A DNA stretch of 64,000 bases from an uncultured Ignavibacteriales bacterium (GCA_964627305.1 CAZVHP010000001.1:269792-333791); one strand, 5' to 3'. Shown: positions 678 to 64,000, counted from the stretch's first letter. Program-made: numbers and translations. The notes: generated from the letters alone by a model not told the origin.

Positions 678-719
678 CAACGAGGAATGACCACCGCCGG
701 TTGACAGCGATGTCTATGT

Positions 720-26925: not shown

Positions 26926-26928
26926 CTG

Positions 26929-28483: not shown

Positions 28484-28503
28484 ACCATAGTCTCTGCAAT
28501 CGC

Positions 28504-28845: not shown

Positions 28846-28875
28846 ATTATAATCACATGACCCGCACGCGGTCAA
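28846..28875 (-). promoter_or_regulatory. Sigma70-like promoter of the precursor/rSAM operon
   Basis: On the minus strand: TTGACC (28875-28870), 18-nt spacer, TATAAT (28851-28846). It sits in the only AT-rich patch of the region and implies a 5' UTR of about 210 nt. Confidence 0.55.
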
Positions 28876-34660: not shown

Positions 34661-34689
34661 AGAATATGCTGCCCTCTACGTTCTGTCAA
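34661..34689 (-). promoter_or_regulatory. Sigma70-like promoter driving the structured RNA
   Basis: On the minus strand: TTGACA (34689-34684), 17-nt spacer, TATTCT (34666-34661). Confidence 0.55.
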
Positions 34690-34896
34690 GCACTAAGTTG
34701 CCTGCTCTTCATTTTTAATGTGTTACGAGTTATCCACTTTTGCAGGTGGTGGCTGATATCTTTGAGCGGTTGGCCGAAGTGCTGTCCTCTTTGGGCCCCC
34801 CCAGCAATGAACAACTTCTCGTTGAACTCGGCCCAGCGATCTGCTACATTGCTGCCAGTGTTCACAAAGCATCCTCGATCTCAGGAGAACCGTCCC

Positions 34897-37800: not shown

Positions 37801-38181
37801 GTCACGCTTTGCAATGAATGGACTTCCTCCGACGGGGAAATGTTCGTGGAAGGTTTTCGCCGCCTGCAACTGGGCAAAGTGATCGGCACCCGGACCTGGG
37901 GAGGCGGCATCTGGCTGAGCTACGCCAATCGCCTCGTCGATAACGGCATCGCAAGTGCGGCCGAATTCGGTGTGTTCGGACCCGAAGGAAGCTGGCCGAT
38001 CGAATGGTACGGCGTCGAGCCGGACAGCACGGTGGACAATCTGCCCCACGAGACGTTCAACGGCCGCGACCGCCAGCTCGAAACAGCCATAGAGCACCTG
38101 ATGGACAAGATACGCACCGATCCGATCGAGCGCCCGATCGGCCCCGAATACCCGGACCGGACACGACCGGACCAGCAGTGA
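34897..38181 (+). CDS. Tricorn-protease homolog (S41B peptidase with beta-propeller, PDZ and C-terminal catalytic domains), exported
   Basis: AGGAGA 8 nt upstream of ATG 34897. Signal peptide MSRSFPAAAFFFALLLPLLVSS. Tricorn N-terminal signature YRYPAIGGGFIVFTAEGDLWRVPIEGG.ARRLT. WD40/TolB-like repeats (SPDG...) and an S41-type C-terminal domain. Confidence 0.85.
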   Translation: MSRSFPAAAFFFALLLPLLVSSSPSPADQPGPQGYYRYPAIGGGFIVFTAEGDLWRVPIEGGLARRLTTHHGWEYRPVVSPDGTQVAFTAQYEGTSDVYVMPLAGGLPRRLTWENEQSYVASWIDNKILLYATSHFSTLPSYQLVRLNLTTGERVPVPLAQAADGVHGDAEELFFVRLPHQGSHARNYPGGTVQNLWKFTPDMADAVRLHPDFEGTSRSPMWWQGRVYFATDRDRTINLWSMLPDGTDLRQHTFHEGWDVKSPALSDGMIVYQLGADLYLYEIATDQTAMVEITLASDFDQMREKWIDKPMDYLTSAHLSGDGSHVVLTARGQVFVRPVKAGRMREVTRNDGVRYRSARFLHGNDTLIALSDESGEVEFWQLLADGTGVPLQLTDNAEVLRFDGLPSPDGNLIAYTDKNNRLWVYERDRDRHRLVDSGRYGAAHDPTWAPDSRHLAWVGEAENDFSRIWIYAVVDDERFAVTSDHYESYDPAFSPDGKWLYFISQRNLDAIAGNVWGPRAEQPFLYAPAKLYQLALSKDARSPFELKDELTLKTEATAKTDKDDKKDQKPAVVVSIDRDSLPWRLYELPVDGGNYTDLNVTDKAVYYRSWPAVGSRKYTLNVLEISDDSPKPAEFASNISEYELSGDLSKILLRSGDNLYVVDASVSPPASLDKGRLDLTSWTFPLNPREEWRQMFLEAWRLERDYFYDTGMHGVDWTAIRDKYLPLVDRVTDRWELSDLLAHMISELSALHMTVGGGDHRTAEEKVTIASLGALLIRDVRGGGYRVDHIYRGDPERPETLSPLAKPGVGITEGDMLVGINGQDVLKASHINELIRNRVGQQVLVEYKPHNRSGTEKAIVVPVSGAAERNLRYLDWEITRRRMVDSLSDGQIGYVHIRAMGRGNYAEWARDFFPVWNRPGLIIDVRHNQGGNIDSWIIGSLLRKPFLWWQPRIGQADPNFQYGFAGHMVTLCNEWTSSDGEMFVEGFRRLQLGKVIGTRTWGGGIWLSYANRLVDNGIASAAEFGVFGPEGSWPIEWYGVEPDSTVDNLPHETFNGRDRQLETAIEHLMDKIRTDPIERPIGPEYPDRTRPDQQ

Positions 38182-43277: not shown

Positions 43278-43490
43278 ACGACCTCTCTTCAGATAACAAT
43301 GACAGGTCCCACACCATCAGCTCACAATGTAGACCGCTCCAGGCCCGCTGACAAGTGCAATACGCTAAATCCTTTGCTAATGAACTTTGCAGTGCTATAT
43401 TGCCCTCAGAAACATACGCCGGTGTCCGGTGTCCGGTCTGTGGTCACCGAATCGGCCCCAAAACCCCCGTACTTGCGCAAGCCGAGGAAT

Positions 43491-45647: not shown

Positions 45648-45964
45648 AGAGGTGGTACTCAGCGACAAGTGCGGTCCACGAACCTGAACCGATCCTGCGA
45701 ACTAAAGTACTGGTGTTTTGTGGTTCGTTCCGTATATTGTACAAGATATACAGCAAACAGATTACTGATTACTATGTGTTGGCCTTGCTTGAACCGCACC
45801 CAACACCGCCGCTCGCACACCCCTCACGTTCGTGTTGCTCTTGCTTCGGCAGGATCTGATGAATGCGTAGCGAGCGGATCACCGGTAAACAAACGGACAG
45901 CCGAGCCGACATCATTGAAACACCGATGCCCTTCGCCACGGCTGGTTACCAAAGGAGATGAGAC

Positions 45965-48361: not shown

Positions 48362-51300
48362 GTGACTGTCCGCACCGCGATTTCCTCAGCCATCTTCATC
48401 TGTATCCTGATCCTCGCCTCGGCTGCCTTCACCGCCGCCGATGAAATCCTGTACGCCCGATACCCGGTCCTGTCTCCGGATAACCAGACCATCGCCTTTA
48501 CCTGGCAGGGCGACATATGGGCTGTTCCCGCAGGTGGGGGAGAGGCAACCCGCCTGACGGTCCATGAGGCCGAGGACATCAGACCGTACTACTCACCCGA
48601 CGGACGCTGGCTCATGTTCTCCTCGCGGCGCTACAACAACTACGATGTCTTCATCATACCCGCCACAGGCGGCTCGGCCAAACGCCTGACTGTTCATTCC
48701 TCCGACGACTTCGGCTCCGGCTGGACCCCCGGCAGCGACAGCGTCATCTTTACCTCGCATCGCAACTCCCGTCGCGATATCTACGCCGTCTCCATCGAGG
48801 GCGGAACTCCGGTCGGACTGGCCACCACCCCGTGGGAACACCTGTACGGCGGTCGCATCTCCGGCGATGGCACCAGGCTGCTGTTCGCCAGCGGCTCCGG
48901 CCTGTCTCGTTGGTGGCGACGCGATTTGCGTACGGCTATGGTCGCCGATCTTTACGTTCAGGATCGCACCGTCACGCCGTTCACCTCCACGCGACTAACC
49001 AATCACGGCGGTCACGACCTGTGGCCGGTCCTCAACTGGGAGACCGATGATGTCTACTTCGTCTCCTGCCGCGGCGACTGGGCGCAGGTGTTCCGAACGG
49101 ATTTGTCCGGCCTTGAGGCGACTCCCATCACCAGCTTTGACGGCGATGGCGTCCAGTGGCTGAACAGCAATCCCCAGGGAACCCAGCTCGTGTTTGAACA
49201 GGGTTTCAAGATCTGGCATCTGGACCCGTCGCTTCCCGCTCTCAGGTCCGTGCCCATTCGCATCGCCACCGATGAGCGAACGAACCTCATCGAACACAAG
49301 CGCCTCACCGAAGATGTCGAGTGGTTCCAGTTGTCTCCTGATGGTCGGAAGATCGTCGCCGTCGTTCACGGTGAACTCTATCTCCTGCCTGCCGAGGACC
49401 CCCGGCTCGCCCGCCGTCTGACAGAGACATCTGCACGAGAACGCTTCCCTGTCTGGGGGCCGGACTCGCGCACCATCTACTATGCCTCCGACCGCAATGG
49501 CAACTACGACATCTTCGCTCTTGATGCCACTACCGGCGAGGAACGCCAGCTCACCCGTGACAGTGTCGACGAAACCAAGCCGTTGGTGTCTCCCGATGGT
49601 CGCTGGCTGGTCTTCTATCGCGGCCTCAGGCAGATCAGTCGCTACGATCTGGCCAAGGACAGGGAGTCCGTATGGATCGAAGGACCCTTCCTTGACGGCG
49701 GTGTAGCAATGACTATGGAATACGCCTGGTCACCAGATTCCAAATGGCTCACGTACACAATGGGGGGCCCCACCTTCGAGTCCAATACCTATGCCGCTGA
49801 CTTCGAGAACAACCGGTACAACCTGAGTCTGTTTGTCGACTGGAACTACCGTCCGCTCTTCTCGCCCCGGGGCGATTATGTGTATTTCACCTCCAACAAT
49901 CGTTGGGATCGCGGCATCTACCGCGTGCACCTCCAGCCCCGCCCAATCGAGTTCGACGAAGCCGCCATTGACAGCCTGTTCGTGGAGACCGAGAAGCATA
50001 AGGCGAAGGGCAACGACCGCGGCCCGGACAGGGACAGCCTCCAGGCTGCACCTTTCGAAGTCACCATGGACACCAGTCGCATTGACCTGCGCCGCGAGAA
50101 GATGGTTCGCCTCGATGCCCCCGGCGAGTCTCCTGTCGTCACCCCCGACGGCAAACAGCTTCTGTTCGTCGCTCCGGTCCTTGGCAAACCCGAGATATGG
50201 TCGGTCAGGATCGACGAGGACGATCCGAACCTCACCCAGATCACGCGTTCGGGCAAAGCCAAGACACAGTTGCAGGTGTCGCCGGACGGCAAGCGAGTCT
50301 TCTACCTCCAGAGCGGCAACATCCTGAGCTGCGAGATCGAATCTGCCAAATGTGAAAGCCTGCCGCTTTGCGCCGAGCTTGAGGTCAACACCATCGAGAA
50401 CAACCGGCAGAAGTTCCGCGAAGGCTGGCAGATGCTCAACAGCTATTTCTATGACACGACTTTCCACGGCACCAACTGGGACGGCGTCCGGGCCAGGTAT
50501 CAACCGGTCGTGGACCACATCCGCTCCGAGGAGGAGTTCCGCAATCTCTTCATGGAACTGATGGGCGAACTGCGCGCCTCTCACCTGCACATCTACTCCC
50601 GTGAACCCGGCCCTGCACCGGCCGTGCGCACCGGCTGTCTCGGGGTCGACTGGGATTACGGCGCCCTGCGAGACGAGGGCATGCTTCGAATCGGAACTGT
50701 CCTGCCGTCTTCCGCCGCCGCTCGTGCCGGCCTCAAACCGGGCCAGGTTCTGCTCGCAGTGAACGAGACACCGTTGGCCACAACGACCAACGTTCATGAA
50801 CTGCTCGCCGGCACAACCGGACGCCGGGTGACTGTCACCGTGTCGGACAAACCCGGAGGCAAGACCATGCAGGTCGAACTCAAACCGGAGTCTGAAGGTG
50901 CAGAGAACAACCATCGCTACGAGGCGTGGATAGTGCGCAACCGTGCCATCGTCGACTCGCTTTCCGGCGGTCGCCTGGCCTATCTTCACATTCGCAGCAT
51001 GAACCAGCCCGCTTTGGAGCGCTTCGAGCAGGAACTGGTCAACTTGGCCGAAGACAAGCTTGGTGCCATCATCGATGTCCGCTTTAACGGCGGCGGCTGG
51101 ACAGCCGTGCATATTCTGGGCACCCTTATCAAATCACCATATATTATGCGTTCCTTCCGCGGCGAACCGCCAACATCAGAGAACAAGATGCGTTCCAAGG
51201 CATGGGAACGCCCCCTCGCGCTGCTGATCAACAGCGCCTCCGGATCCAACGCCGAGATCTTTGCCGAAGGGTTTCGCAAACTCGCACTCGGCCCGGTCAT

Positions 51301-51535
51301 CGGCACACATACCAGCGGTGCCGTCATCGGCACCAGCTCGTATGAGCTGATCGACGGCACGACTATCCGACGGCCATCATGGGGAGCCTTCACTACCGAC
51401 ATGGTAGACACAGACTTAACCCCTCGCCAACCGGATGTCGTGGTAGAGATGCTGCCCGATGATTACATTAACGAACGCGACCCGCAACTGACCCGCGCCG
51501 TCCGAGAGCTGATCGACGAACTGGACCGCCGATGA
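48362..51535 (+). CDS. Second tricorn-protease homolog (S41B), exported
   Basis: AAGGGAGAG upstream of GTG 48362. Signal-like AISSAIFICILILASAAFTA. RYPVLSPDNQTIAFTWQGDIWAVPAGGGEATRLT, TolB-like repeats and an S41 C-terminal domain parallel to the first copy. Confidence 0.85.
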   Translation: MTVRTAISSAIFICILILASAAFTAADEILYARYPVLSPDNQTIAFTWQGDIWAVPAGGGEATRLTVHEAEDIRPYYSPDGRWLMFSSRRYNNYDVFIIPATGGSAKRLTVHSSDDFGSGWTPGSDSVIFTSHRNSRRDIYAVSIEGGTPVGLATTPWEHLYGGRISGDGTRLLFASGSGLSRWWRRDLRTAMVADLYVQDRTVTPFTSTRLTNHGGHDLWPVLNWETDDVYFVSCRGDWAQVFRTDLSGLEATPITSFDGDGVQWLNSNPQGTQLVFEQGFKIWHLDPSLPALRSVPIRIATDERTNLIEHKRLTEDVEWFQLSPDGRKIVAVVHGELYLLPAEDPRLARRLTETSARERFPVWGPDSRTIYYASDRNGNYDIFALDATTGEERQLTRDSVDETKPLVSPDGRWLVFYRGLRQISRYDLAKDRESVWIEGPFLDGGVAMTMEYAWSPDSKWLTYTMGGPTFESNTYAADFENNRYNLSLFVDWNYRPLFSPRGDYVYFTSNNRWDRGIYRVHLQPRPIEFDEAAIDSLFVETEKHKAKGNDRGPDRDSLQAAPFEVTMDTSRIDLRREKMVRLDAPGESPVVTPDGKQLLFVAPVLGKPEIWSVRIDEDDPNLTQITRSGKAKTQLQVSPDGKRVFYLQSGNILSCEIESAKCESLPLCAELEVNTIENNRQKFREGWQMLNSYFYDTTFHGTNWDGVRARYQPVVDHIRSEEEFRNLFMELMGELRASHLHIYSREPGPAPAVRTGCLGVDWDYGALRDEGMLRIGTVLPSSAAARAGLKPGQVLLAVNETPLATTTNVHELLAGTTGRRVTVTVSDKPGGKTMQVELKPESEGAENNHRYEAWIVRNRAIVDSLSGGRLAYLHIRSMNQPALERFEQELVNLAEDKLGAIIDVRFNGGGWTAVHILGTLIKSPYIMRSFRGEPPTSENKMRSKAWERPLALLINSASGSNAEIFAEGFRKLALGPVIGTHTSGAVIGTSSYELIDGTTIRRPSWGAFTTDMVDTDLTPRQPDVVVEMLPDDYINERDPQLTRAVRELIDELDRR

Positions 51536-51666: not shown

Positions 51667-51737
51667 GCGACTTATGACTTGAGCATACTAACACAATCGC
51701 CCACAATTAGTTGGGCGTTGGCGATAAGGAGATAGAT

Positions 51738-53018
51738 ATGGCCAAGTACGAACCGGGCGACGATGTCATCCGCGCGGAGACACTCGTAGTCGGGGGCGGC
51801 ATCGCCGGTATGACAACGGCCATCGAGACCGCTGAGGTCGGGCGCGACGTTATCCTCTTGGAACGTCAGCCCACTTTGGACGGCCGCGTTGCCTCGTCGT
51901 ATCAGTATTTCCCCAAACTGTGCCCCCCTACCTGCGGTATCGAGATCAATCTCAAGAGAATCCGCATCAACCCGCATATCCGGGTACTCACTCTGGCCGA
52001 GATCGAGTCAGTCAGCGGCTCTCCGGGCGATCTGGAGGTCAGAATCACTCTGAAGCCTCGATATGTGAATGAGCGTTGCACCTGCTGTGGCGAGTGCGCC
52101 AAGGTCTGCGAGATAGAGCGCGACAACGACTTCAACTATGGTCTGGATAAGACCAAAGCCATATACCTGCCGCACATGATGGCTTACCCGCAACGCTATG
52201 TCGTCGACCCGAGATTCGTCAACGACCCGGCCATGAAGAAATGTGTCGAGGCCTGCGAATACGGTGCCATCGAACTGGACATGCAGCCGCGCACAATCAC
52301 CGCCAAAGTCGGCGCCATCGTCTGGGCAACCGGTTGGAAGCCATACGACGCCACCAAACTGGACAATCTCGGATTCGGCAAGATCAAGAACGTCATTACC
52401 AACGTTATGATGGAGCGCCTGGCTGCGCCCAACGGTCCCACCGAGGGCAAGATCCTCCGCCCGTCCGATCAGAAGGAAGTCAAGTCCGTCGGTTTCGTGC
52501 AGTGTGCCGGCTCTCGCGATGAGAACCACCTGCCGTATTGCTCCGCCATCTGTTGTCTTGCCTCGATGAAAGAGGCAACTTACGTACGAGAGCAGTATCC
52601 CGACGCCAAAGTCCATATCTTCTACATCGATGTGCGCTCCCCGGGGCGCATGGAGGACTTCTACGTCAAACGTCAGGAAGATGACAAGATCCACTTCCAC
52701 CGTGGCAAAGTAGCCCGCATAACTGAAAACACCGCCAACGGAAACCCCATTCTGGAAGCCGAGAATACCCTGACCGGTGAGATCACCAAGACCGAAGTGG
52801 AGATGGCTGTTCTCGCGACAGGAATGGTCCCAAACAACATCGACGTCAAGCCGCCGCTCGATACACCGCTGGACGACTTCGGGTTTATTGTCCAGGGTTT
52901 CGAGCAAAACGGCGTCATCGGTGCCGGTGTTGCTGTCAGGCCATTCGATGTCTCGCAATCGGTACAGGACGGCACCGGGGCTGCCCTGAAGGCTATGAAC
53001 GTCGGGGCAAGGAGGTAA
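51738..53018 (+). CDS. qmoA: QmoA (HdrA-like flavoprotein of the quinone-interacting membrane-bound oxidoreductase complex)
   Basis: AAGGAG upstream of ATG 51738. VVGGGIAGMTTAIE, YFPKLCPPTCGIEINLKRI and PRYVNERCTCCGECAKVC closely match the QmoA pattern known from Desulfovibrio. Confidence 0.85.
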   Translation: MAKYEPGDDVIRAETLVVGGGIAGMTTAIETAEVGRDVILLERQPTLDGRVASSYQYFPKLCPPTCGIEINLKRIRINPHIRVLTLAEIESVSGSPGDLEVRITLKPRYVNERCTCCGECAKVCEIERDNDFNYGLDKTKAIYLPHMMAYPQRYVVDPRFVNDPAMKKCVEACEYGAIELDMQPRTITAKVGAIVWATGWKPYDATKLDNLGFGKIKNVITNVMMERLAAPNGPTEGKILRPSDQKEVKSVGFVQCAGSRDENHLPYCSAICCLASMKEATYVREQYPDAKVHIFYIDVRSPGRMEDFYVKRQEDDKIHFHRGKVARITENTANGNPILEAENTLTGEITKTEVEMAVLATGMVPNNIDVKPPLDTPLDDFGFIVQGFEQNGVIGAGVAVRPFDVSQSVQDGTGAALKAMNVGARR

Positions 53019-53021
53019 GCG

Positions 53022-55301
53022 ATGGATCCCAAAGTAGGAATCTACATATGCAAGGGTTGTGACATCGCTAAGGCCGTCGATGTCGACAAGCTTGTCGAGG
53101 AGGCCGGCAAGGGCAAGAACGTCGCCGTGTGCAAGGCACAGGATGTGATGTGCGCCCGTGAAGCGGTGGAACAGATTAACAAGGATATCGAGTCCGAAGG
53201 TCTCAACAGAGTTGTCATCGGCGCCTGCTCGCCGCGCGTATTCCCTGAAGTCTTCGATTTCGGACCGAAGGTGCTTACCGAGCGTGTCTCGCTGCGCGAG
53301 CACGTTGCCTGGTCTCACGAAACCGACGATGAAGAAGACATGGAAATGCTGGCCCAGGACTATATGATGATGGGTCTGGCCAAAGTCAATCACACTGAAC
53401 CGCCCGAGCCGTTCATCGCCGAGACCTCCAAAGATGTCCTCGTCGTCGGCGGTGGTGTCGCCGGCATGACGGCCGCTCGTGCCATTGCCGACGCCGGCTA
53501 CAAGGTGCACCTGGTCGAGAAGGAAGACCATCTCGGCGGCTGGGCTGCCAGGTATGCGAAGGTCTTCCCGAAACAGCCTCCGTATGATTCGCTTGAGGAC
53601 TTCGATGTCGACTCGCTCATCAAGACCGTTGAATCCCACGACAAGATCACGGTCCACAAATCCTCTGCCGTCAAGAAGAGCAAAGGACAACCGGGCGAGT
53701 TCATGGTTGAACTGAGCAATGGCTCCGCCCCCGAACCGTTTACAGTCGGAGCCATCATTCTCGCGTCCGGCTGGAAACCTTACGATCCGGCCAAACTGGG
53801 CAAGTGGGGATACGGCATTTCGCCGGACGTCATCACCAACGTCCAGATGGAAGACATGATGAAAAGCGGCGCCATCAAGCGCCCGTCAGATGGCAAAGCC
53901 CCCGAAAGCGTCGCGTTCATCCAGTGTGCCGGTTCGCGCGACAAGGACCACCTCCCGTATTGTTCGGCCGTGTGCTGCCGGGTGTCGCTCAAACAGGCGA
54001 AATACGTGCGTGAAGCATACCCCGATGCCAAGGTCTACATCATCTACAAGGACCTCCGTTCGCCACAGCAGTATGAGTTGTTCTATCAGAACGCACAGGC
54101 CGATGAAGGCATTTTTTTCACCAAAGGCGAAATCGGTGAGGTAACCTCCAACGGCGATGGTCGGGTGACTATCAATGTCTCCGAAACGCTGCTTGGTGAG
54201 GATATCCAGGTCAAGGCCGATATGGTCGTGCTGGCGGCTGGTATGGTGCCAACCACCAGGGTCGAGGGCGTCAAGGGTGATCTCGACGTCATGGCCGAGG
54301 TGGCCGAGATGCTCGATGCCGGTGAGATTCCCAAGGAGGAAGAGAAGGAAGAGGCACTCGAGGACGGCAAAAAAGCCGCTGCCGGAGCCGAAAAGGGCGC
54401 CAAAATCCTGAACCTGTCCTATCGCCAGGGAACGGACCTGCCCACTCTCAAGTACGGTTTCCCGGACTCCCACTTCATTTGTTTCCCCTATGAAACCCGC
54501 CGCACTGCCGTTTACGCGGTCGGAGGTGTTCGTGCCCCTATCGACATTGCCGGCACCATCAACGATGCCTATGGAGCCGGGCTGAAAGCCATTCAGGCCG
54601 TGGAATCCATCGCCAGGGGAGCCGCCGTGCATCCTCGCGCGGGCGATCTGTCGTATCCGGAGTTCTTCCTGCAGCGTTGCACCCAATGCAAGCGATGTAC
54701 CGAAGAATGTCCGTTTGGAGCTCTCGATGAAGATGACAAGGGTACGCCCAAGCCGAACCCCTTCCGGTGCCGTCGTTGCGGCGTCTGCATGGGGGCCTGC
54801 CCGGAGCGTATTGTCACCTTCAAAGACTACAACATCAGCATGGTCTCCAATATGATCCGGTCGATCTCCATGCCCGATGAATTCGACGAGAAACCGCGAA
54901 TACTCGCTTTCGTGTGCGAGAACGATGCCATGCCCGCACTGGAGATGGCTTCCTCATTGCGCATGAAGTACAACGAGATGATTCGCATCATCCCGTTGCG
55001 CTGCCTGGGCTCCATGAACACCATCTGGATCAGCGATGCCCTTTCCAACGGTTTCGATGGTGTCATCCTGCTGGGCTGCCGCAAGGGAGAGGACTACCAA
55101 TGCCACTTCGTCCGCGGCTCGGAACTCGCCCAGTACCGGATGGAGAATGTCAGGGAGAAACTCAAACAACTCGTGCTTGAGGAAGAACGGGTCGAGGTCC
55201 ACGAAGTCGCCATCTCCGAGTTTTACAAAATCCCGAAGATCTTCAATGACTTCCTGGAAACCATCGAGTCGGTCGGCCTGAATCCCTATAAAGGCATGTA
55301 G
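53022..55301 (+). CDS. qmoB: QmoB (HdrA-like flavoprotein with ferredoxin and C-terminal MvhD-like domains)
   Basis: 759 aa. N-terminal VGIYICKGCDIA, VVGGGVAGMTAA, CTQCKRCTEECPFGAL / CRRCGVCMGACP, and C-terminal ILAFVCENDA...LRCLGS...GVILLGCRKGEDYQCHF (MvhD-like). Confidence 0.85.
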   Translation: MDPKVGIYICKGCDIAKAVDVDKLVEEAGKGKNVAVCKAQDVMCAREAVEQINKDIESEGLNRVVIGACSPRVFPEVFDFGPKVLTERVSLREHVAWSHETDDEEDMEMLAQDYMMMGLAKVNHTEPPEPFIAETSKDVLVVGGGVAGMTAARAIADAGYKVHLVEKEDHLGGWAARYAKVFPKQPPYDSLEDFDVDSLIKTVESHDKITVHKSSAVKKSKGQPGEFMVELSNGSAPEPFTVGAIILASGWKPYDPAKLGKWGYGISPDVITNVQMEDMMKSGAIKRPSDGKAPESVAFIQCAGSRDKDHLPYCSAVCCRVSLKQAKYVREAYPDAKVYIIYKDLRSPQQYELFYQNAQADEGIFFTKGEIGEVTSNGDGRVTINVSETLLGEDIQVKADMVVLAAGMVPTTRVEGVKGDLDVMAEVAEMLDAGEIPKEEEKEEALEDGKKAAAGAEKGAKILNLSYRQGTDLPTLKYGFPDSHFICFPYETRRTAVYAVGGVRAPIDIAGTINDAYGAGLKAIQAVESIARGAAVHPRAGDLSYPEFFLQRCTQCKRCTEECPFGALDEDDKGTPKPNPFRCRRCGVCMGACPERIVTFKDYNISMVSNMIRSISMPDEFDEKPRILAFVCENDAMPALEMASSLRMKYNEMIRIIPLRCLGSMNTIWISDALSNGFDGVILLGCRKGEDYQCHFVRGSELAQYRMENVREKLKQLVLEEERVEVHEVAISEFYKIPKIFNDFLETIESVGLNPYKGM

Positions 55302-55331: not shown

Positions 55332-55363
55332 AGAACCCCCAAACTTGGGGGTTCTTTTCATTT
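55332..55363 (+). terminator. Rho-independent terminator after qmoB
   Basis: AGAACCCCC-AAACTT-GGGGGTTCT followed by TTTCATTT. Confidence 0.8.
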
Positions 55364-55789: not shown

Positions 55790-56986
55790 ATGGCTGACAA
55801 TCTACCCAAAACCCCCAAGCTCGACGAGCTTGAAAAGGGCGGTTGGCCGAGCTTCGTGAAAGAGATCAAGATGGCCGCCAAGGGAAGCCCTATGGCGGCA
55901 GATCTGCTTGGCCAATTGGAGCAGTCCTTCGAGGAAAGAATTGGCCACTGGAAGCACGGCGGTATCGTCGGTGTTATGGGCTATGGCGGCGGTGTAATCG
56001 GACGTTACTCTGACCTGCCGGACAAGTGGCCCAATATCTCACATTTCCACACCATGCGTATCAACCAGCCCGCAGGGTGGTACTATACCTCTGATGCCCT
56101 GCGCAAGATCTGTGACATCTGGGAGGAGCACGGCTCCGGTCTGACCAACATGCACGGCTCCACCGGCGACATCATCCTGCTCGGTACCCGTACCGAACAA
56201 CTTGAACCGGTCTTCGAGAAGCTTGGTAAGATCGATTTCGATATCGGTGGCTCCGGCTCCGATCTTCGCACCCCTTCCTGTTGCTGTGGCAAATCCCGCT
56301 GTGAGTGGGCCTGCTATGACACCATGCAGTCCTGCTACGATTTGACTATGCACTACCAGGACGAGTTGCACCGTCCGGCCTTCCCGTACAAGTTCAAGTT
56401 CAAGTTCTCCGGCTGTCCCAACGACTGCGTAGCCTCCATCGCGCGTGCCGATATGTCGTTCATCGGGACCTGGCGTGACGCTATCCGCATCGATCAGGAT
56501 GCGGTGCGCGAGTACGTTGACCGTGGACTGAACATTCAGGAGGACGTCATCAGCCGCTGCCCCGGCAACTGCATGGAGTTCGACGGCAAGGAACTGCATA
56601 TCGAAAACAGCTACTGCAAGCGCTGTATGCACTGCATTAACGTGATGCCGAAGGCGCTCCGTCCCGGTACCGACACCGGCGCCACCATTCTCATTGGTTC
56701 CAAGGCCCCCATCATCGAGGGCGCCCTGCTGTCCTCCGTCCTCATCCCGTTCTACAAGATGGAACCTCCGTACGAGGACCTCAAGGAACTGATCGAGGAG
56801 ATCTGGGACGTCTGGTGTGAAGAGGGCAAGAACCGCGAGCGCATCGGAGAATTCATCCAGCGCGTCGGCATGGGGAACTTCCTCGATGCCATCGGGATGG
56901 AACCCGTTCCTGAGATGGTCGCCCATCCGCGCGAGAATCCCTATGTCTTCTTCGAGGAAGACGAGGACGATGAGGACGAGGGCTGA
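55790..56986 (+). CDS. dsrA: Dissimilatory sulfite reductase alpha subunit
   Basis: GAGGAG 5 nt upstream of the [23 protein letters not shown], siroheme/[4Fe-4S] Cys motifs ([26 protein letters not shown]) and ferredoxin insert CPGNCMEF...[12 protein letters not shown]. Confidence 0.92.
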
Positions 56987-57048
56987 TTTGGCCTCCCCAG
57001 CGTCAAAGATGAGAAACGACAATAACGTTACACTAATAGAGGTTTGAC

Positions 57049-58128
57049 ATGGCAGATGTTCAGGAAAGAAGAACTGACTTTGGCCCGCCTCACTTCCAGC
57101 AGTTTCTGCCGCCGGTGATCAAGGAAAACTACGGCAAGTGGAAATACCATGAGATTCTCAAGCCGGGTGTCATGGTCCATGTGTCGGAAACCGGCGCCAA
57201 ACTGTGGACCGTGCGCGCGGCCTCGGGTCGTCTGATCAGTATCAACAAGATTCGAACCTTCTGTGACCTGGCTGACAAGTACTGCAAGGGCTTCTTCCGT
57301 TTCACCAGCCGTCACAATGTCGAGTTCCTGCTCGACTCGGACGAGAAGCTCGATGACCTTATCGCCGATCTCAAGGCCATCGGCCATCCCATCGGCGGCA
57401 TCGGCAATTCCATCACCGCTATCGTACATACTCAGGGCTGGGTCCACTGCCATTCAGCGGCGACCGACGCCTCCGGTATCGTCAAGGCTGTCATGGATGA
57501 CCTGATGGAGTACTTCGAAAACATGAAGCTGCCGGGCAAGCTGCGTATTGCTCTGGCCTGCTGTCTGAATATGTGCGGTGCCGTGCACTGCTCCGATATC
57601 GCGATTCTTGGTATTCACCGCAAGCCGCCCCGGATCGACCACAGCCGCCTGAACAAGCTGTGCGAAATCCCCAACGTCAGCGCTTCCTGCCCGACCGCAG
57701 CCATCCGACCGGCTACTGTCGACGGCAATCCCTCTGTGGAAGTGATCGACGAGCGCTGCATGTATTGCGCCAACTGCTTCACTGTCTGTCCGGCTATGCC
57801 CTTGAACGATCCGGACAACGACGGTGTCTCCATCTGGGTTGGTGGCAAGGTGTCGAATGCCCGCTGCGAGCCTATGTTCTCCAAGCTGGCCATCCCCTAC
57901 CTGCCCAACAATCCGCCGCGTTGGCCCGAGGTAACATCTGCCATCCGTAATCTCGTGGAGTTGTGGGCCAAGAACGCCCGCAAGTACGAGCGGATGGGAG
58001 AATGGATTAACCGTATCGGTTGGCCGAGATTCTTCAAAATGGCCGGTATTGAATTCACCAAGATGCACATCGATGACTTCAAACATGCCGGTCTGACCTT
58101 CAAGCGGTCAACCCATCTAACCTTCTAA
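57049..58128 (+). CDS. dsrB: Dissimilatory sulfite reductase beta subunit
   Basis: [36 protein letters not shown], and ferredoxin insert CPTAAIRP...[13 protein letters not shown]. Confidence 0.92.
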
Positions 58129-58138
58129 GGGGTTTGTA

Positions 58139-58384
58139 ATGAAGCCTGTTGAAGAAGTAGCAGAGGCTATGTTCGAGATGGTCAAGGATGCCCAGGCCGT
58201 CAAGAAGAAACTGAAACCCATGGATCTGACCAAGGCCATGATTGCGACCTATGGCGATGAAGTGGACAAGAAGCTCTGCAAGGAGGCTATCAAGCAATTG
58301 ATTAACTCCGGACGATGCGTGTACACGTATTTCGGCGGAAGCTTTATCGAGATTCCGCACCGGGAGGGTGCAGCCAACGACTAA
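58139..58384 (+). CDS. dsrD: DsrD
   Basis: 81-aa winged-helix-like protein directly after dsrB. The C-terminal half (KEAIKQLINSGRCVYTYFGGSFIEI) resembles the DsrD pattern. Confidence 0.75.
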   Translation: MKPVEEVAEAMFEMVKDAQAVKKKLKPMDLTKAMIATYGDEVDKKLCKEAIKQLINSGRCVYTYFGGSFIEIPHREGAAND

Positions 58385-58408
58385 GGTCCTCAAGCGGAGG
58401 TTGCGGCA

Positions 58409-59869
58409 ATGGTGGTGAAAGCACCGCGAGTGGTTGTTGCCGGGCTGTCGGGAGACAGCGGCAAGACCATTGTCAGTCTGAGTCTGATTACCGGACTGCG
58501 CGAACGCGGCTTGGCAGTCGCCCCATTCAAGAAAGGCCCGGACTACATTGACCCCGCCTGGCTTGCCTGGGCTGCCAAGGCTACCTGCCGTAACCTGGAC
58601 ACCTTCCTGGTCGATGAGTCGGTGGTGGCGCACACGTTCTCCCGCCACGCTGCTGCTTCTGAGATAGCGGTCATCGAAGGAAACAGAGGCCTGTTCGACG
58701 GTCGCGACGTTTCCGGATCGCATAGTACTGCGGGGCTTGCAAGGCTCTTGCAAGCCCCGGTTGTATTGGTGGTCAATGCCACCAAGACAACCCGTACTGC
58801 CGCCGCCCTTGTCCATGGTTGTATGACCTTCGAAGACAACGTGAAGATTGCCGGTGTTGTCCTCAACCGGATCGCCGGCACTCGACACGAAAGCGTCACC
58901 CGCCAGGCCATCGAGTCTGCCTGCCGGATTCCCGTCCTGGGTGTCATTCCCAAACTCAGGGAATCACGTTCCCTGATTCCCGGACGTCACCTCGGGCTTG
59001 TACCGCCAACCGAATTGGATGAACAAGCGGCTGTGAGACAACGTATGACTGAGATCGCCAACAGCTACCTCGACCTCGACCGGATCCAGGCCATTGCCGC
59101 CCAAGCCCCGCCCCTGGGAGCTGCTGATCCGGTGAGTCAATCCGTCACCGCCGATCCGGTAAGAGTTGGTGTCTTTCGCGATTCTGTCTTCACCTTCTAC
59201 TACCCGGAGAACCTTGAAGGCCTTCAGCGCGAGGGAGCAACGATTGTTCCAGTCTCATCACTTGAGGATAGTTGTCTGCCGCCGATCGATGCCCTCTACA
59301 TTGGTGGAGGCTTCCCTGAGACGCACGCCGAGCGACTGATTGCCAATCGATCCCTGATGGCCTCCGTCCGTGAGGCAGCCGAGCGCGGACTGCCCATCTA
59401 TGCCGAATGCGGTGGCCTGATCTATCTGGCGCGGTCGGTGACATGGAATCAACAGCGCTACGATATGGCCGGGGTCTTTCCCATTGATCTGATTATGACC
59501 TCCAGGCCTGCCGGTCACGGTTACGTGGAGGCCGAGGTGGACAGCCCCAACCCCTTCTTCCCGATCGGCACCCGCATCAGAGGTCACGAGTTTCACTACT
59601 CCACTCCCGCCGACAAGCCTCATGCGGCTACGTGCCTTGCAATGAAGTCAGGAGTCGGCTTTGCGGACAAGCGCGATGGGTTGATCGCCGGCAGCGTCCT
59701 CGCTGCCTACAGCCACATCCACGCCGAAAGCGTCCCCTCATGGGCCGAAGCCGTGGTCTGTCGAGCGCGCGAGTACCGTAAGGCGGCAGCAAGGTCTGCG
59801 TCCGGTCAGACAAACGGTGAAAGCGATACAGAAGAGAGTGATTTGGACTCCAATAGGGTTTGTGTGTAA
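58409..59869 (+). CDS. dsrN: DsrN (cobyrinate a,c-diamide synthase homolog, siroheme amidase)
   Basis: CbiA/CobB-type N-terminal ATPase (VVVAGLSGDSGKT) and a C-terminal glutamine amidotransferase domain (YAECGGLIYL), in the position typical of dsrN. Confidence 0.8.
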   Translation: MVVKAPRVVVAGLSGDSGKTIVSLSLITGLRERGLAVAPFKKGPDYIDPAWLAWAAKATCRNLDTFLVDESVVAHTFSRHAAASEIAVIEGNRGLFDGRDVSGSHSTAGLARLLQAPVVLVVNATKTTRTAAALVHGCMTFEDNVKIAGVVLNRIAGTRHESVTRQAIESACRIPVLGVIPKLRESRSLIPGRHLGLVPPTELDEQAAVRQRMTEIANSYLDLDRIQAIAAQAPPLGAADPVSQSVTADPVRVGVFRDSVFTFYYPENLEGLQREGATIVPVSSLEDSCLPPIDALYIGGGFPETHAERLIANRSLMASVREAAERGLPIYAECGGLIYLARSVTWNQQRYDMAGVFPIDLIMTSRPAGHGYVEAEVDSPNPFFPIGTRIRGHEFHYSTPADKPHAATCLAMKSGVGFADKRDGLIAGSVLAAYSHIHAESVPSWAEAVVCRAREYRKAAARSASGQTNGESDTEESDLDSNRVCV

Positions 59870-59997
59870 TAATTAGAGGATATAGTAGAGAGGCTGGTTG
59901 ACTTTTCGGCCCCGACGCCAACATTCTCGGTGATCAGGAGGATGGCCGAACACGCAGCCGAGCCGTATGACGCGATACTCAACGAAAGAGAATCATC

Positions 59998-61683
59998 ATG
60001 GGTCTGTTGAACAAGAAAAAGAAAAAAGGCGGCCTGAGCAGGGTATCCGGCGCCTCCGGCAGCTCGGGCGTGGAGTCCTCGCCGCTTCGGCCGCAATTTG
60101 TGGAGAAGAAAGCTCCCTGCGGCGTTGGCTGTCCGAATCACAATCACATCCGCAAGATGCTCATGACCATTCACAAGGCCGAGGATCTCAAGAAGAGCTA
60201 CGATCAGGCCTTCGAAGAAGCCTTTCATATCTTCCTCGAAACCACTCCGTTCCCCAGCGTTTGCGGACGCGTCTGCCCGCACCCGTGTGAGTCCGAGTGC
60301 AACCGCGGCGGTAAGGAAGGTGCTGTCGGAATCAACAGTGTCGAGCGCTTCATAGGTGACTATGGACTCGAGAAAGGTCTGAAGCCTAAGATGCTCGCCG
60401 ACCAGAAGCGCGACAACAAAGTCGCCATCGTCGGTTCCGGCCCCGGCGGTATGTCGGCTGCCTACCACCTCGCCCGCAGAGGTTACCAGGTAACCGTCTA
60501 TGAGGCCTTCCCGAAATCCGGCGGCATGCTCCGCTATGGCATCCCCAACTACCGCTTGCCGCAGGATATCCTTGACAAGGAGAACCAGCGCATTCTCGAT
60601 ATGGGCGTCAAACTGAAACTGAACACCAGTGTCGGCAAAGATGTCTCATACGAGCAACTGCAGAAGGACAATGATGCCGTCTTCGTCGCCATTGGCGCCC
60701 ACAAGGGTCGCTTCCTGCGCGTCGAAGGGGAGGAGGCCGAGAATGTCTTCACCGGCACTGACTTCCTGCACCGGGTCAACCGTGGCGAGGCGGTCGATGT
60801 CGGCGATCATGTGGTCGTAATCGGTGGCGGTGACACTGCTATTGACGCCGCCCGCATTGCCCGCCGTCTTGGCGCTAAGGCAACTATCCTGTATCGCCGC
60901 ACACGCAACGAGATGCCGGCTATCGATGAAGAAATCGTCGGAGCAGAGGAAGAAGGCGTCAGAATTGACCTGCTGGCCGCTCCGCTGGAGGTCTACCAGA
61001 CCAACGGTCGGGCCACCGGCATGAAGTGTCAGCGCATGCAGCTTGGTGAACCCGATTCATCCGGCCGTCGTCGGCCGGTACCCATTGAGGGGGACACCTT
61101 CGACATGGAGTTCTCCACCCTTGTGGCTGCCATCAGCCAGGAACCGGACTTCACCGGCTGCGAGAATCTCATTGAAGGCAGAGACTGGATCAAGGTCAAC
61201 GACAAGTACATGACCAAAGTCGAACGCGTCTTCTCCGGTGGCGATGATGTCAACCTCGGGCTGGTGATCGATGCTATCTTTCACGGCCGCATGGCCGCAG
61301 CCCATATCCACGAGATGATCTCCGGAGAAACGCTGCCCACACCGCCCGATCGCAAAATCGTGCGGCTGGAAAACATGTATCATGCCTACTATGAGGAGAA
61401 GCAGCCGATTCGTGCTACCACGATCCCGGTGGAAGAGCGCTTCGCTGACATCGATCGCGAGATCATGCCAACCATGACTCAGGATCAGGCTGTCGGCGAG
61501 GCCAAACGGTGTATGAGCTGCGGCATGTGCTTTGATTGCGGAAGCTGCTGGAGCCTGTGCCAGGATCAGGCCGTCATCAAGCCCCAGCAGAAGATGGGCG
61601 AGTACAAGTTCAAACTCGAGTTCTGCAACGGGTGCAAGAAATGCGCCGAGAACTGCCCCTGCGGATATATTGAGATGCACTAA
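59998..61683 (+). CDS. dsrL: DsrL-like NAD(P)H oxidoreductase (GltD-family core plus C-terminal 2x[4Fe-4S] ferredoxin domain)
   Basis: CGRVCPHPCESEC, VAIVGSGPGGMSAA, VIGGGDTAIDAA, GEPDSSGRRRP. C-terminal CMSCGMCFDCGSCWSLC and CNGCKKCAENCPC. Located between dsrN and dsrC. Confidence 0.7.
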   Translation: MGLLNKKKKKGGLSRVSGASGSSGVESSPLRPQFVEKKAPCGVGCPNHNHIRKMLMTIHKAEDLKKSYDQAFEEAFHIFLETTPFPSVCGRVCPHPCESECNRGGKEGAVGINSVERFIGDYGLEKGLKPKMLADQKRDNKVAIVGSGPGGMSAAYHLARRGYQVTVYEAFPKSGGMLRYGIPNYRLPQDILDKENQRILDMGVKLKLNTSVGKDVSYEQLQKDNDAVFVAIGAHKGRFLRVEGEEAENVFTGTDFLHRVNRGEAVDVGDHVVVIGGGDTAIDAARIARRLGAKATILYRRTRNEMPAIDEEIVGAEEEGVRIDLLAAPLEVYQTNGRATGMKCQRMQLGEPDSSGRRRPVPIEGDTFDMEFSTLVAAISQEPDFTGCENLIEGRDWIKVNDKYMTKVERVFSGGDDVNLGLVIDAIFHGRMAAAHIHEMISGETLPTPPDRKIVRLENMYHAYYEEKQPIRATTIPVEERFADIDREIMPTMTQDQAVGEAKRCMSCGMCFDCGSCWSLCQDQAVIKPQQKMGEYKFKLEFCNGCKKCAENCPCGYIEMH

Positions 61684-61755
61684 CTGCCATGGAATGCGAA
61701 TACGATACAGTGAATAAATGTGACCTAACAACTACTTGCTTACGGAGGATCTATC

Positions 61756-62073
61756 ATGCCGACATTTACGCATGGTGATATCAGCATCGACGTTGATGAA
61801 GACGGATTCATGGAAGAGCCGGATCAGTGGAACGAAGAGGTTGCCAAAGCCCTCGCAACCACTGAAGGTGTCGACGAAATGACCGAAGAGCACTGGAAAC
61901 TGGTGAACTACCTGCGCGAGTACTACCTCAAATTCGGTATTGCTCCCATGATTCGCAAGCTCTGCAAAGAGACCGGCTTCCCGCTCAAGAAGGTCTATGA
62001 GCTGTTCCCGTCGGGACCGGCCAAGGGCGCCTGCAAAGTCGCCGGGCTGGCCAAGCCGACCGGTTGTGTGTGA
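61756..62073 (+). CDS. dsrC: DsrC (TusE/DsrC family) with both conserved C-terminal cysteines
   Basis: GGAGGA upstream of the ATG. 105 aa ending ...GPAKGACKVAGLAKPTGCV, with the penultimate Cys and a second Cys 11 residues upstream. Confidence 0.92.
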   Translation: MPTFTHGDISIDVDEDGFMEEPDQWNEEVAKALATTEGVDEMTEEHWKLVNYLREYYLKFGIAPMIRKLCKETGFPLKKVYELFPSGPAKGACKVAGLAKPTGCV

Positions 62074-62092
62074 TCGCATATTGCCGGACTCC

Positions 62093-62125
62093 AGGCCGAG
62101 AGACTTCAGCCTCTCGGCCTGCTTT
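62093..62125 (+). terminator. Perfect 10-bp hairpin after dsrC (likely terminator or processing site)
   Basis: AGGCCGAGAG-ACTTCAGC-CTCTCGGCCT followed by GCTTTC (weak T-tract). Confidence 0.5.
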
Positions 62126-62233
62126 CGGGCAACAAACAGGACGGTTTTTATCCCGTCAGTCGATCCTGAGTGCCAGACTAGCCCTGCAAATCAGGTATCA
62201 TGGACAAGCAGGTGAAAAATCGCCAAATATAGG

Positions 62234-62262
62234 TTGACCTCGGTCAGCCGGGATTTTACTAT
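62234..62262 (+). promoter_or_regulatory. Sigma70-like promoter for dsrT-dsrM-dsrK
   Basis: TTGACC (62234-62239), 17-nt spacer, TACTAT (62257-62262). Confidence 0.5.
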
Positions 62263-62299
62263 TGTAGCAGTTGCCGAGCCGCTTTTTTTTGACCACCAC

Positions 62300-62317
62300 T
62301 TGTGAAGGTATTCACAA
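62300..62317 (+). promoter_or_regulatory. Perfect Rex-type operator TTGTGAA-N4-TTCACAA upstream of dsrT
   Basis: TTGTGAAGGTATTCACAA, about 30-48 nt downstream of the predicted -10 and 41 nt before the dsrT ATG. Confidence 0.65.
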
Positions 62318-62357
62318 ACACTCGCAGTGTCCGGCTTGGCTGTCTTATGAGGGTAAC

Positions 62358-62912
62358 ATGTTGCTTAAGCAGCAGATACTTCAGCATCGCGAGGCCATTA
62401 TCGACAGCTGGCGACAGGCAGTTTTCGGTACATACCCCTCCGAGTCGGCCACATTTCTGACCTCACGACACAATCGGTTTGCCAACCCCGTCGGTCAGAC
62501 AATTCATGACAATGTCGAGCAGCTCTTTGACCAGGTTTCCGGGTCCTTCGAACCCGCTGCCGCGACCGTTGCCCTCGATGCTATCATCCGCATTCGGGCT
62601 GTGCAGGAGTTCTCCGCCGCCGAGGCAATTCAGTTCATATTCGAGATCAAGAACATCGTCCGGCAATTCGTCGGCCTGTCGCAGAACGGACACCCCGACC
62701 GGGCAGTCGTCGAGGACCTGCGCAGTTTCGACCAGCGCGTCGACAACCTGGCTCTGCTCGGATTCGACCTGTTCATGCGCTGCCGTGAGAAGCTGTACGA
62801 AATCCGTACGAACGAAACTCGCCGCCGCCACGAGAAGCTCGTCGAGCGATTGGTGGCCAGGGATCAGAATCAAAACGGCGATGCAGACACGTCGCCTGAT
62901 GAAGACAAGTAA
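62358..62912 (+). CDS. dsrT: DsrT (RsbRD N-terminal-domain protein)
   Basis: GAGGGT 4 nt upstream of ATG 62358. HREAIIDSWRQAVFGTYPSESATFLTSRHNRFANPVGQTI matches the RsbRD_N/DsrT pattern. It sits directly upstream of dsrM. Confidence 0.6.
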   Translation: MLLKQQILQHREAIIDSWRQAVFGTYPSESATFLTSRHNRFANPVGQTIHDNVEQLFDQVSGSFEPAAATVALDAIIRIRAVQEFSAAEAIQFIFEIKNIVRQFVGLSQNGHPDRAVVEDLRSFDQRVDNLALLGFDLFMRCREKLYEIRTNETRRRHEKLVERLVARDQNQNGDADTSPDEDK

Positions 62913-62950
62913 GCAGCAATGAGACATAGAAGCAAGAGAGGACATTGCGA

Positions 62951-63952
62951 ATGAAACTGGTGCTGTCTGTGTTAGCTATCATCGTGCTGGCACTGGTGCC
63001 GTGGGTGGGAGTCAGTACTATGGGCCTGCACACTGTATTCGGTGTGGTCCTGCCGTATCTGGCCATCGCCATCTTCCTGATCGGCTTCGTGTGGCGGATT
63101 ATCGACTGGGCGCGATCGCCGGTACCGTTCCGCATCCCCACCACCTGTGGTCAGCAGAAATCGCACGCCTGGATCAAGCAGGACAGACTGGAGAATCCCG
63201 ACGGCTTCTGGAGTACTGCCGGAAGGATGCTCCTTGAAGTCCTGTTCTTCCGGTCGTTGTTCCGCAACACCAAGGCCGACATCAAGGAAGGATCAAAGCT
63301 GGTCTACGGATCAAGCAAGTGGCTGTGGGCAATCGGCCTGGCGTTCCACTATGCCTTTCTCGTCATCTTCCTGCGACACTTCAAGTACTTCGCCGAACCG
63401 ACTCCCGACTGGGTGCTCGCGCTCCAGTGGGTCGACAGCTTCTGGCAGGTCGGTGTACCGTTGATCTACATGACTGATCTTATCCTTGTTGGTGCTGTGT
63501 CACTGCTGTTCATCCGACGCCTCTGGAATCCGCAGGTGCGCTACATCTCGCTCGCAGCCGACTACTTCCCGTTGCTGCTCATCCTCGGAATCGGCATCAG
63601 CGGCATATGGATGCGCTATTTCAGCAAGACCGATCTGCTTGCCGTCAAACAGCTCGGTACCGCACTGATCAGCTTCAGCCCGGCCGGGGCCGATGTGCTC
63701 AGCAGTATCGGCGTGGTGTTTTTCATACATCTGTTTCTGGTATGCTGTCTGTTCATCTACTTCCCGTTCAGCAAGCTGATGCACCTTGGTGGCGTCTTCC
63801 TCAGCCCGACCAGAAACCTGGCCAACAATAACCGGGTCAAACGGCACATCAACCCGTGGAACCCTGAGGTCAAGTTTCACACCTATGACGAGTACGAGGA
63901 TGAGTTCAGGGATGTGATGAAGGCTGCCGGACTTCCGGTAGAGAAGGAGTGA
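62951..63952 (+). CDS. dsrM: DsrM (NarI-like membrane cytochrome b)
   Basis: Polytopic membrane protein with WARSPVPFRIPTTCGQQKS after TM1, and NarI/HmeC-like length and helix pattern. It precedes dsrK. Confidence 0.8.
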   Translation: MKLVLSVLAIIVLALVPWVGVSTMGLHTVFGVVLPYLAIAIFLIGFVWRIIDWARSPVPFRIPTTCGQQKSHAWIKQDRLENPDGFWSTAGRMLLEVLFFRSLFRNTKADIKEGSKLVYGSSKWLWAIGLAFHYAFLVIFLRHFKYFAEPTPDWVLALQWVDSFWQVGVPLIYMTDLILVGAVSLLFIRRLWNPQVRYISLAADYFPLLLILGIGISGIWMRYFSKTDLLAVKQLGTALISFSPAGADVLSSIGVVFFIHLFLVCCLFIYFPFSKLMHLGGVFLSPTRNLANNNRVKRHINPWNPEVKFHTYDEYEDEFRDVMKAAGLPVEKE

Positions 63953-63955
63953 TCA

Positions 63956-64000
63956 TGACCAAAATACCCAAACCTGATGAGCTAATCAAGATTGATCTCA
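63956..64000 (+). CDS. dsrK: DsrK (HdrD-like), first 15 codons only; truncated by window end
   Basis: AAGGAG upstream of the ATG. MTKIPKPDELIKIDL... in the expected position after dsrM. The call rests mainly on synteny. Confidence 0.5.

Follow-up and report, generated by a model that had tools for sequence, protein, structure and literature searches.

The stretch of DNA analysed here (64,000 nucleotides from an uncultured bacterium labelled Ignavibacteriales, GCA_964627305.1 CAZVHP010000001.1:269792-333791; hereafter the window) ends within an operon for dissimilatory sulfite reductase (Dsr). The operon reads dsrABDNLCTMKJOP and encodes a complete reductive-type Dsr system, as confirmed below. 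We conclude that the locus probably serves dissimilatory sulfite reduction, most likely as the terminal part of sulfate reduction. The classification as reductive is based on four features: a reductive-type DsrA, a dsrD-like gene directly after dsrB, a DsrL of type 2 (DsrL-2) with an arginine at a cluster-ligand position, and no dsrEFH in the approximately 72 kb inspected altogether, that is, the window and the 7.7 kb over which the 522-kb source contig (L001) is readable past the window end. The closest homologues of the DsrL and DsrD-like proteins are labelled candidate division Zixibacteria or GN15, and we assign the locus to a Zixibacteria-like bacterium of order GN15.

What was read directly is which genes are present, the families and sequence types to which they belong, and the synteny kept among related loci. 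A map of the open reading frames (ORFs) between 52 and 64 kb shows a single co-directional row of genes on the plus strand. A previous reading of the window, made from the sequence only, had proposed the order dsrA-B-D-N-L-C-T-M-K; the ORFs lie where this reading placed them, and curated models uphold the names. DsrA, DsrB, DsrM, DsrK, DsrJ, DsrO and DsrP all pass curated equivalog models. The last four of these are encoded on the same contig beyond the window, where their NCBIfam equivalog scores (746 bits for DsrK, 156 for DsrJ, 304 for DsrO and 463 for DsrP) are each over the cut-off, and DsrJ carries three CxxCH motifs. All five subunits of DsrMKJOP are thus present, including the dsrJ, dsrO and dsrP genes that the sequence-only reading had proposed to look for, which follow dsrK. 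DsrC matches PF04358 and was rightly described as a two-cysteine protein: both redox-active residues, Cys93 and the penultimate Cys104, are found in its C-terminus (CKVAGLAKPTGCV). We also inspected the gaps of the window and of the 7.7 kb downstream for small ORFs and found none that plausibly resembles dsrEFH, in agreement with the previous reading; across the 72 kb, no dsrEFH, sox, sqr, sat or apr gene was seen.

We compared the window DsrA with four solved reductive DsrA from the PDB and with the DsrA of related loci, a limited set, by neighbour-joining (NJ). It is 63% identical to the Archaeoglobus fulgidus protein, 60% to the Desulfovibrio type and 64–66% to the dsrD- and dsrL-linked DsrA of Nitrospirota and Acidobacteriota. 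Its identity to gammaproteobacterial rDsrA is 48%, and the reductive references are themselves 42–45% identical to rDsrA. In the unrooted tree, the oxidative rDsrA clade was split from all other DsrA, that of the window included, in 100% of bootstraps. With DsrB as root, distances were saturated and deep nodes weakly supported; this rooting was set aside and the unrooted split and the identity matrix were used instead. By these comparisons the window DsrA is of the reductive type, in line with published Zixibacteria.

The identity of the 561-aa protein encoded between dsrN and dsrC was at first open, since its best curated match is the generic model NF009410 ('NAD(P)-binding protein') and among solved structures it comes closest to modules linked to Nfn and to formate dehydrogenase. 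It could on these grounds be a general NADPH oxidoreductase of the NfnB/GltD type that plays no part with DsrAB. Its domain order is an N-terminal 2x[4Fe-4S] domain, a core binding flavin adenine dinucleotide (FAD) and NAD(P)H, a linker and a C-terminal 2x[4Fe-4S] ferredoxin, as matches to Fer4_20, Pyr_redox_2 and Fer4_21 show; the GltD-type core and C-terminal di-cluster domain noticed earlier are therefore genuine. Fer4_21 and Fer4_7 both match residues 510–560, and eleven cysteines, including a CxxCxxCxxxCP motif, fall within residues 505–555. The genome has its own nfnAB pair outside the dsr locus, whose NfnB (484 aa) served as comparator and as tree outgroup; the linker and the C-terminal ferredoxin domain are both missing from it. 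We then scanned 185,579 species genomes for homologues, which returned 80 loci. Every homologue at least 46% identical and with enough flanking sequence lies beside dsrA-dsrB and the gene for the 81-aa DsrD-like protein. Homologues of 38–45% identity (L045, L048–L081) have no dsr neighbours, except for six from Gammaproteobacteria that adjoin rdsrAB or other dsr genes. In an NJ tree rooted on NfnB, built with neither DsrL-1, Desulfurella amilsii nor cultured-organism reference sequences, the dsr-linked proteins, mostly members of dsr operons, form a clade with a bootstrap of 100, with a dsrD-linked subclade at 81, and the window DsrL falls within a Zixibacteria group (bootstrap 100). NfnB and the paralogues of 38–43% identity that have no dsr neighbours stay outside the dsr-linked clade. 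The separate nfnAB pair, the dsr-linked neighbourhoods and this clade settle that the protein is DsrL and not NfnB or GltD. The motif YRR had been considered as a further test against NfnB and was dropped, since NfnB and unlinked paralogues share it, a fact that would otherwise favour a general oxidoreductase; YRR separates DsrL-2 from DsrL-1 only. A general oxidoreductase is thus largely refuted and very improbable.

According to Loffler et al. 2020 (PMC7596348), DsrL-2 is recognised by a YRR motif, by substrate-binding and linker domains without long insertions and, where the partner DsrA is reductive, by Ser or Thr at the position of NfnB Cys39 and by Arg instead of Cys at that of Cys42. 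The window DsrL has Y299-R-R and S28-P-L-R31, i.e. Ser and Arg at these two positions. The pattern [ST]-x-x-R occurs in all full-length DsrL of the dsrD-linked subclade (31 besides that of the window), whereas the five DsrL linked to rDsrAB have S-x-K-C. The NAD(P) domain of the rDsrAB-linked homologues is also enlarged by 52 aa inserted at position 293, which are missing from the window protein; between residues 243 and 343 the latter shows a gap of at most one residue relative to Nfn-type chains. The window DsrL thus matches the published description of DsrL-2 acting with reductive DsrAB, and the earlier suggestion that this short DsrL is of the DsrL-2 type is borne out by the YRR motif, the Ser-x-x-Arg pattern, the lack of the insertion and the place in the dsrD-linked subclade. 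On context and literature, it would be a DsrL-2C in the sense of Diao et al. 2023, whose definition is context-based.

Two groups of more distant proteins were noticed in the same scan. The DsrL-like proteins of loci L048–L081 (38–43% identity), from Anaerolineae, Zixibacteria, Syntrophobacterales and others, have the same core, YRR and C-terminal ferredoxin with no dsr genes nearby, and are likely to be miscalled as DsrL on similarity alone; in L079 and L080 (1134 aa) the DsrL-like core is fused to longer HdrA-like N-termini. The gammaproteobacterial loci come from metagenome-assembled genomes (MAGs; L041–L044, L046 and L058), with the order dsrC-rdsrA-rdsrB-dsrL seen in L041–L044 and L058. 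The DsrL of L041–L044 and L046 combine YRR and a Cys at the fourth distal-cluster position with the 52-aa NAD(P)-domain insertion, a mixture of published DsrL-1A and DsrL-2 traits.

The assignment of the 81-aa protein to DsrD is more delicate. It does not match the Pfam DsrD family PF08679 even at E ≤ 10, and neither the single sequence nor a profile of its family matches the DsrD structure 1UCR; direct Pfam and PDB sequence searches return generic winged-helix matches only. Homologues from related loci score 0.016–0.04 against PF08679 or do not match, 7 of 43 family representatives match it (best 5e-6), and 2,082 database homologues are unnamed and have no precomputed Pfam domain. One near-identical homologue carries the wrong source label 'septin family protein'. 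Nevertheless, the gene follows dsrB, mostly at a distance of 4–19 nt, in nearly all related loci that have both, and this in several phyla. The AlphaFold (AF2) model is a winged helix with H-H-H-E-E topology, a predicted local distance difference test score (pLDDT) of 92.6 and a template-modelling score (TM-score) of 0.62/0.67 to 1UCR, although a Foldseek search with the model was not specific and placed 1UCR at rank 50 among generic winged helices. Comparison of the family profile with 24 canonical Desulfovibrionaceae DsrD by hhalign gave E = 8e-5, a probability of 61% and 64 colinear columns; against 1UCR alone, E was 0.011. The wing motif YTYFGGSF aligns on the canonical YWSSGSTT, a motif that has been described for Desulfobacterota DsrD only. 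Canonical DsrD (Desulfovibrio vulgaris, 1UCR) shares with the window protein its length of about 80 aa, its fold and the position of its gene directly after dsrB, but is cysteine-free, whereas the window protein has Cys47 (in xCKxA) and Cys60 (in GRCVY), both partly conserved in the family. Members of the DsrD-like family from Nitrospirota lack both. Position, modelled fold and profile-profile match together give weak but consistent indications that the 81-aa protein is a divergent DsrD. The naming of this gene as dsrD in the sequence-only reading is therefore retained as to remote homology, fold and position, and qualified as to family membership by sequence. It is conceivable, though doubtful, that the proteins of about 80 aa found after dsrB in DsrL-2 lineages (Zixibacteria, Acidobacteriota, Nitrospirota, Myxococcota and others) make up a subfamily whose function differs from that of canonical DsrD; this would explain both the Pfam misses and the partly conserved cysteines.

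Among the closest known loci is that of the GN15 MAG WJKG01 (L003), which has an identical gene order and 87–97% protein identity for most of the locus; lower values were obtained for DsrN (74%), DsrT (70%), DsrJ (84%) and DsrO (81%). Four related loci (L002, L005, L006 and L030) are labelled Ignavibacteriales or Ignavibacterium, yet are of the Zixibacteria type, and their DsrL branches within the clade of Zixibacteria (bootstrap 100). Either these records are mislabelled or the locus is common within the FCB group. The published Zixibacteria MAGs (GN15, family PGXB01) resemble the window in having dsrABCD, a type 2 dsrL, dsrMKJOP, dsrT and qmoAB and in lacking dsrEFH. They differ in that the window comes from another species-level genome and that the 72 kb read of this genome showed no sat, aprAB or qmoC; Table S1 of PMC10591310 lists sat, aprAB, qmoABC, dsrABCD, dsrJKLMOP and dsrT, and no dsrEFH, for GN15 MAGs. 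In another Zixibacteria relative (L039), sat and aprA lie immediately upstream of the same operon.

Several authors have already considered such organisms. Anantharaman 2018 listed Zixibacteria with dsrABCD as sulfate/sulfite reducers. Diao 2023 placed Zixibacteria among the lineages with a full Dsr set, dsrD and DsrL type 2, and DsrL-2C beside reductive dsrAB and dsrD was there proposed as an indicator of reduction (PMC10591310). In Klier 2024 (PMC11406059), Zixibacteria are named as a lineage that retains dsrD and dsrL after the loss of dsrEFH and 'would develop a reductive metabolism'. Among the Acidobacteriota, Ca. Sulfopaludibacter SbA3 and MAG CO124 share with the window reductive dsrAB, dsrD, DsrL-2, dsrN, dsrC, dsrT and dsrMKJOP. 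Sulfate reduction has been demonstrated for CO124, an acidobacterium with DsrD and DsrL-2 (Dyksma and Pester 2023, PMC10564751). The DsrL of two acidobacterial loci (L026 and L038) falls in the same dsrD-linked subclade as that of the window, but dsrL there precedes dsrN; acidobacterial dsr loci differ further in that their DsrL is 48–50% identical and that no qmoAB lies directly upstream. The DsrL-2 of D. amilsii, which has been characterised and is NADPH-specific (PMC7596348), was compared by its published description and not by sequence. By the published criteria it resembles the window protein in YRR, short substrate-binding and linker domains and a reductive-type DsrA partner; D. amilsii itself reduces and disproportionates sulfur and thiosulfate but does not reduce sulfate. 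DsrL-1A of Allochromatium vinosum, encoded in the cluster dsrABEFHCMKLJOPNRS, has the same N-terminal Fe-S domain, FAD/NAD(P)H core and C-terminal ferredoxin, and the same role as direct redox partner of DsrAB. It exceeds the window protein by about 90 aa and carries insertions in both its NAD(P) domain and its linker; it also differs in lacking YRR, in its preference for NAD(H), and in its association with rDsrAB and dsrEFH without dsrD.

By analogy with these systems we infer how electrons flow, in which direction the pathway runs and that DsrL is specific for NADPH. DsrAB, whose siroheme DsrN would amidate, would reduce sulfite together with DsrC and leave DsrC with a trisulfide that joins its Cys93 to Cys104. 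The DsrMKJOP membrane complex would then reduce this trisulfide to sulfide and link the step to the quinone pool. The DsrD-like winged-helix protein may act as an allosteric activator of DsrAB, and DsrL-2 as a cytoplasmic donor that passes electrons from NADPH through FAD and four Fe-S clusters to DsrAB. The upstream QmoAB would feed an adenosine 5'-phosphosulfate (APS) reductase encoded elsewhere.

Several points weigh against this reading of the locus. Zixibacteria have no cultured member, and physiology is here read from genes alone; sat, aprBA and qmoC were not seen within the 72 kb of the genome that were read; the 81-aa protein is too divergent for Pfam, and the activator function of DsrD (PMC8794893) would be transferred to it by analogy; the trees were built by NJ on a limited reference set, and the DsrB-rooted DsrA tree has weak deep nodes. 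In addition, reductive DsrAB and dsrD operate in net sulfide oxidation and disproportionation in Desulfurivibrio and cable bacteria (PMC8794893). A net oxidative pathway, from sulfide or sulfur to sulfite with DsrL passing electrons to NADP+, has been proposed for organisms with rDsrAB and DsrL-2, and the use of reductive-type DsrAB during sulfide oxidation in these bacteria lends it some weight. Every sequence marker nevertheless disfavours it here. The window DsrA does not belong to the oxidative type; the locus has a dsrD-like gene, and dsrEFH was not found in the 72 kb; the DsrL has Arg and not Cys at the distal-cluster position, and this Arg has been reported only for DsrL-2 with reductive DsrA; oxidative DsrL-2 belong to separate subclusters, 2A and 2B (Diao 2023), and the rDsrAB-linked DsrL form a separate clade in our NJ tree. 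We consider net oxidation improbable.

Disproportionation of sulfur, thiosulfate or sulfite would use the same enzymes and, for the sulfite branch, the same direction. The source of the characterised DsrL-2, D. amilsii, is a sulfur disproportionator, and the DsrAB, DsrD and DsrL-2 of organisms that do not reduce sulfate have been explained by disproportionation (PMC8794893). A persulfide reductase of the Npsr type, with both catalytic cysteines, is encoded beside dsrP here and in 10 other loci and would be compatible with such a metabolism, but A. fulgidus, which has a homologue of the Npsr-like protein, is an ordinary reducer of sulfate and thiosulfate (PMC7969121). No specific marker of disproportionation was seen in the 72 kb, and the literature lists Zixibacteria as sulfate/sulfite reducers. 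Disproportionation is thus rather unlikely, though less so than net oxidation, and sulfite reduction is retained as the probable function of the locus.

The sequence-only reading had taken the locus as a mixture of markers of opposite direction. The co-occurrence of dsrD and a short dsrL is real, but the conclusion drawn from it is outdated, as DsrL-2 with reductive DsrAB is now an established class. Its suggestion that DsrAB and DsrL might instead fall into one well-characterised type turned out to describe the locus better, both DsrA and DsrL being of the reductive-associated type; of the matching accessory set that this would entail elsewhere in the genome, sat and aprA are known from relatives (L039; PMC10591310 Table S1). 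Its caution that the locus alone cannot reveal the physiology of the organism holds true.

Features of the window discussed in the text (positions in nucleotides from the first letter of the window)
Feature	Position	Strand	Characteristics
nfnA (5'-truncated by window start) and nfnB	6-2174	+	DHODB_Fe-S_bind and NAD_binding_1, then Fer4_20 and Pyr_redox_2
qmoA-like gene	51711-53018	+	HdrA-like flavoprotein, 435 aa; HdrA-family matches only, no dedicated model
qmoB-like gene	53022-55301	+	759 aa; HdrA-like, 2x[4Fe-4S] and C-terminal MvhD/FlpD (PF02662, 1e-38), Fer4, Pyr_redox_2
dsrA	55790-56986	+	TIGR02064, 586 bits (cut-off 393); reductive-type sulfite reductase alpha subunit
dsrB	57049-58128	+	TIGR02066, 503 bits (cut-off 342); beta subunit
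divergent dsrD-like gene	58139-58384	+	81-aa predicted winged-helix protein; start 10 nt past dsrB end
dsrN	58409-59869	+	TIGR00379 (CobB family), 443 bits; CbiA and GATase_3; a,c-diamide synthase type, siroheme amidase homologue
dsrL (DsrL-2 type)	59998-61683	+	561 aa; NF009410, 582 bits; Fer4_20, Pyr_redox_2 and C-terminal Fer4_21
dsrC	61756-62073	+	PF04358, 1e-37; Cys93 and Cys104
dsrT	62271-62912	+	RsbRD_N domain, PF14361, 9e-17; public gene call begins at 62358
dsrM	62945-63952	+	NF038037, 513 bits; membrane cytochrome b
dsrK start	63957-64000	+	first 44 bases only; gene runs past window end

Upstream of dsrA, a terminator-like hairpin (55332-55355) closes a pair of qmoAB-like genes. QmoABC are recognised when QmoA, QmoB and QmoC occur together and adjoin aprBA; at the window locus neither qmoC nor aprBA was found beside the pair among the window genes scanned, and the Qmo name is proposed from architecture and from the literature on relatives. 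The linkage of qmoAB to dsrA is kept in 8 related loci (L003–L007, L030, L033 and L047), and with it the whole qmoAB-dsrABDNLCTMKJOP arrangement. In Nitrospirota loci L016–L034, an nfnAB pair directly follows dsrABDL.

Beyond the operon, directly after dsrP and about 4.1 kb past the window end, the contig carries the Npsr-type gene, a fusion of coenzyme A (CoA)-disulfide reductase and rhodanese (L001 18093-19802) which, among solved structures, best matches 6pfz of A. fulgidus. Its two catalytic cysteines are Cys48 (in SYGTCGLPY) and Cys530 (in CQRGPR). The other loci in which it adjoins dsrP are L002–L007, L009, L026, L030 and L039; in L008 it is found upstream instead, beside a dsrMK-like pair. 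It is followed by hemA (glutamyl-tRNA reductase) and a precorrin-2 dehydrogenase-like gene with an NAD_binding_7 domain (L001 19817-21686), which fit a local supply of siroheme; hemA keeps this post-operon position in several relatives.

The remaining window genes are housekeeping and proteolytic: besides nfnAB they include queG, rpe, glk, glnS, the pyruvate dehydrogenase complex, a resistance-nodulation-division (RND) efflux system, radical S-adenosylmethionine (SAM) genes, proteases and TldD/PmbA. On the minus strand, a fused-ATPase ATP-binding cassette (ABC) transporter is followed by three radical SAM genes, one of them B12-binding (22652-28308), in a cluster that resembles those for peptide or cofactor maturation. 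Two tricorn-type proteases and two tandem C10 (streptopain-family) peptidases, the latter with PKD domains and one also with a dockerin domain, are encoded at 34666-38181, 43281-48142 and 48362-51535 and suggest a protein-degrading lifestyle. The 931 bp at 28309-29239 contain no credible ORF, Rfam match or tRNA; a single tRNA was the only match of the Rfam scan.

The combination of dsrD with a short DsrL-2 in the window has thus already been described for Zixibacteria and read as sulfate/sulfite reduction. An interpretation in terms of mixed markers reflects knowledge from before 2020, the Zixibacteria configuration having since been published and classified, and the window adds no new biology beyond one further Zixibacteria genome. 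Sulfur-cycle roles of uncultured microbes are nevertheless widely assigned by simple marker rules (dsrD for a reducer, dsrL or dsrEFH for an oxidiser), and the window locus cleanly illustrates the class for which these rules failed. The refined rule, namely reductive DsrAB, dsrD and an Arg-ligand DsrL-2 with no dsrEFH, can be applied from the sequence itself. Annotation of such loci calls for care at two genes: standard Pfam misses the DsrD of these lineages, so that automated pipelines under-call dsrD, and the generic NF009410 model cannot tell DsrL from paralogues unlinked to dsr genes. The residual interest of the locus lies in the physiology of the Zixibacteria and in the divergent DsrD subfamily. 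Should the latter prove functionally distinct, the presence of dsrD would be no safe marker of reduction in DsrL-2 lineages, and these small proteins might adapt DsrAB to DsrL-2/NADPH as its redox partner or control in which direction the reaction runs.

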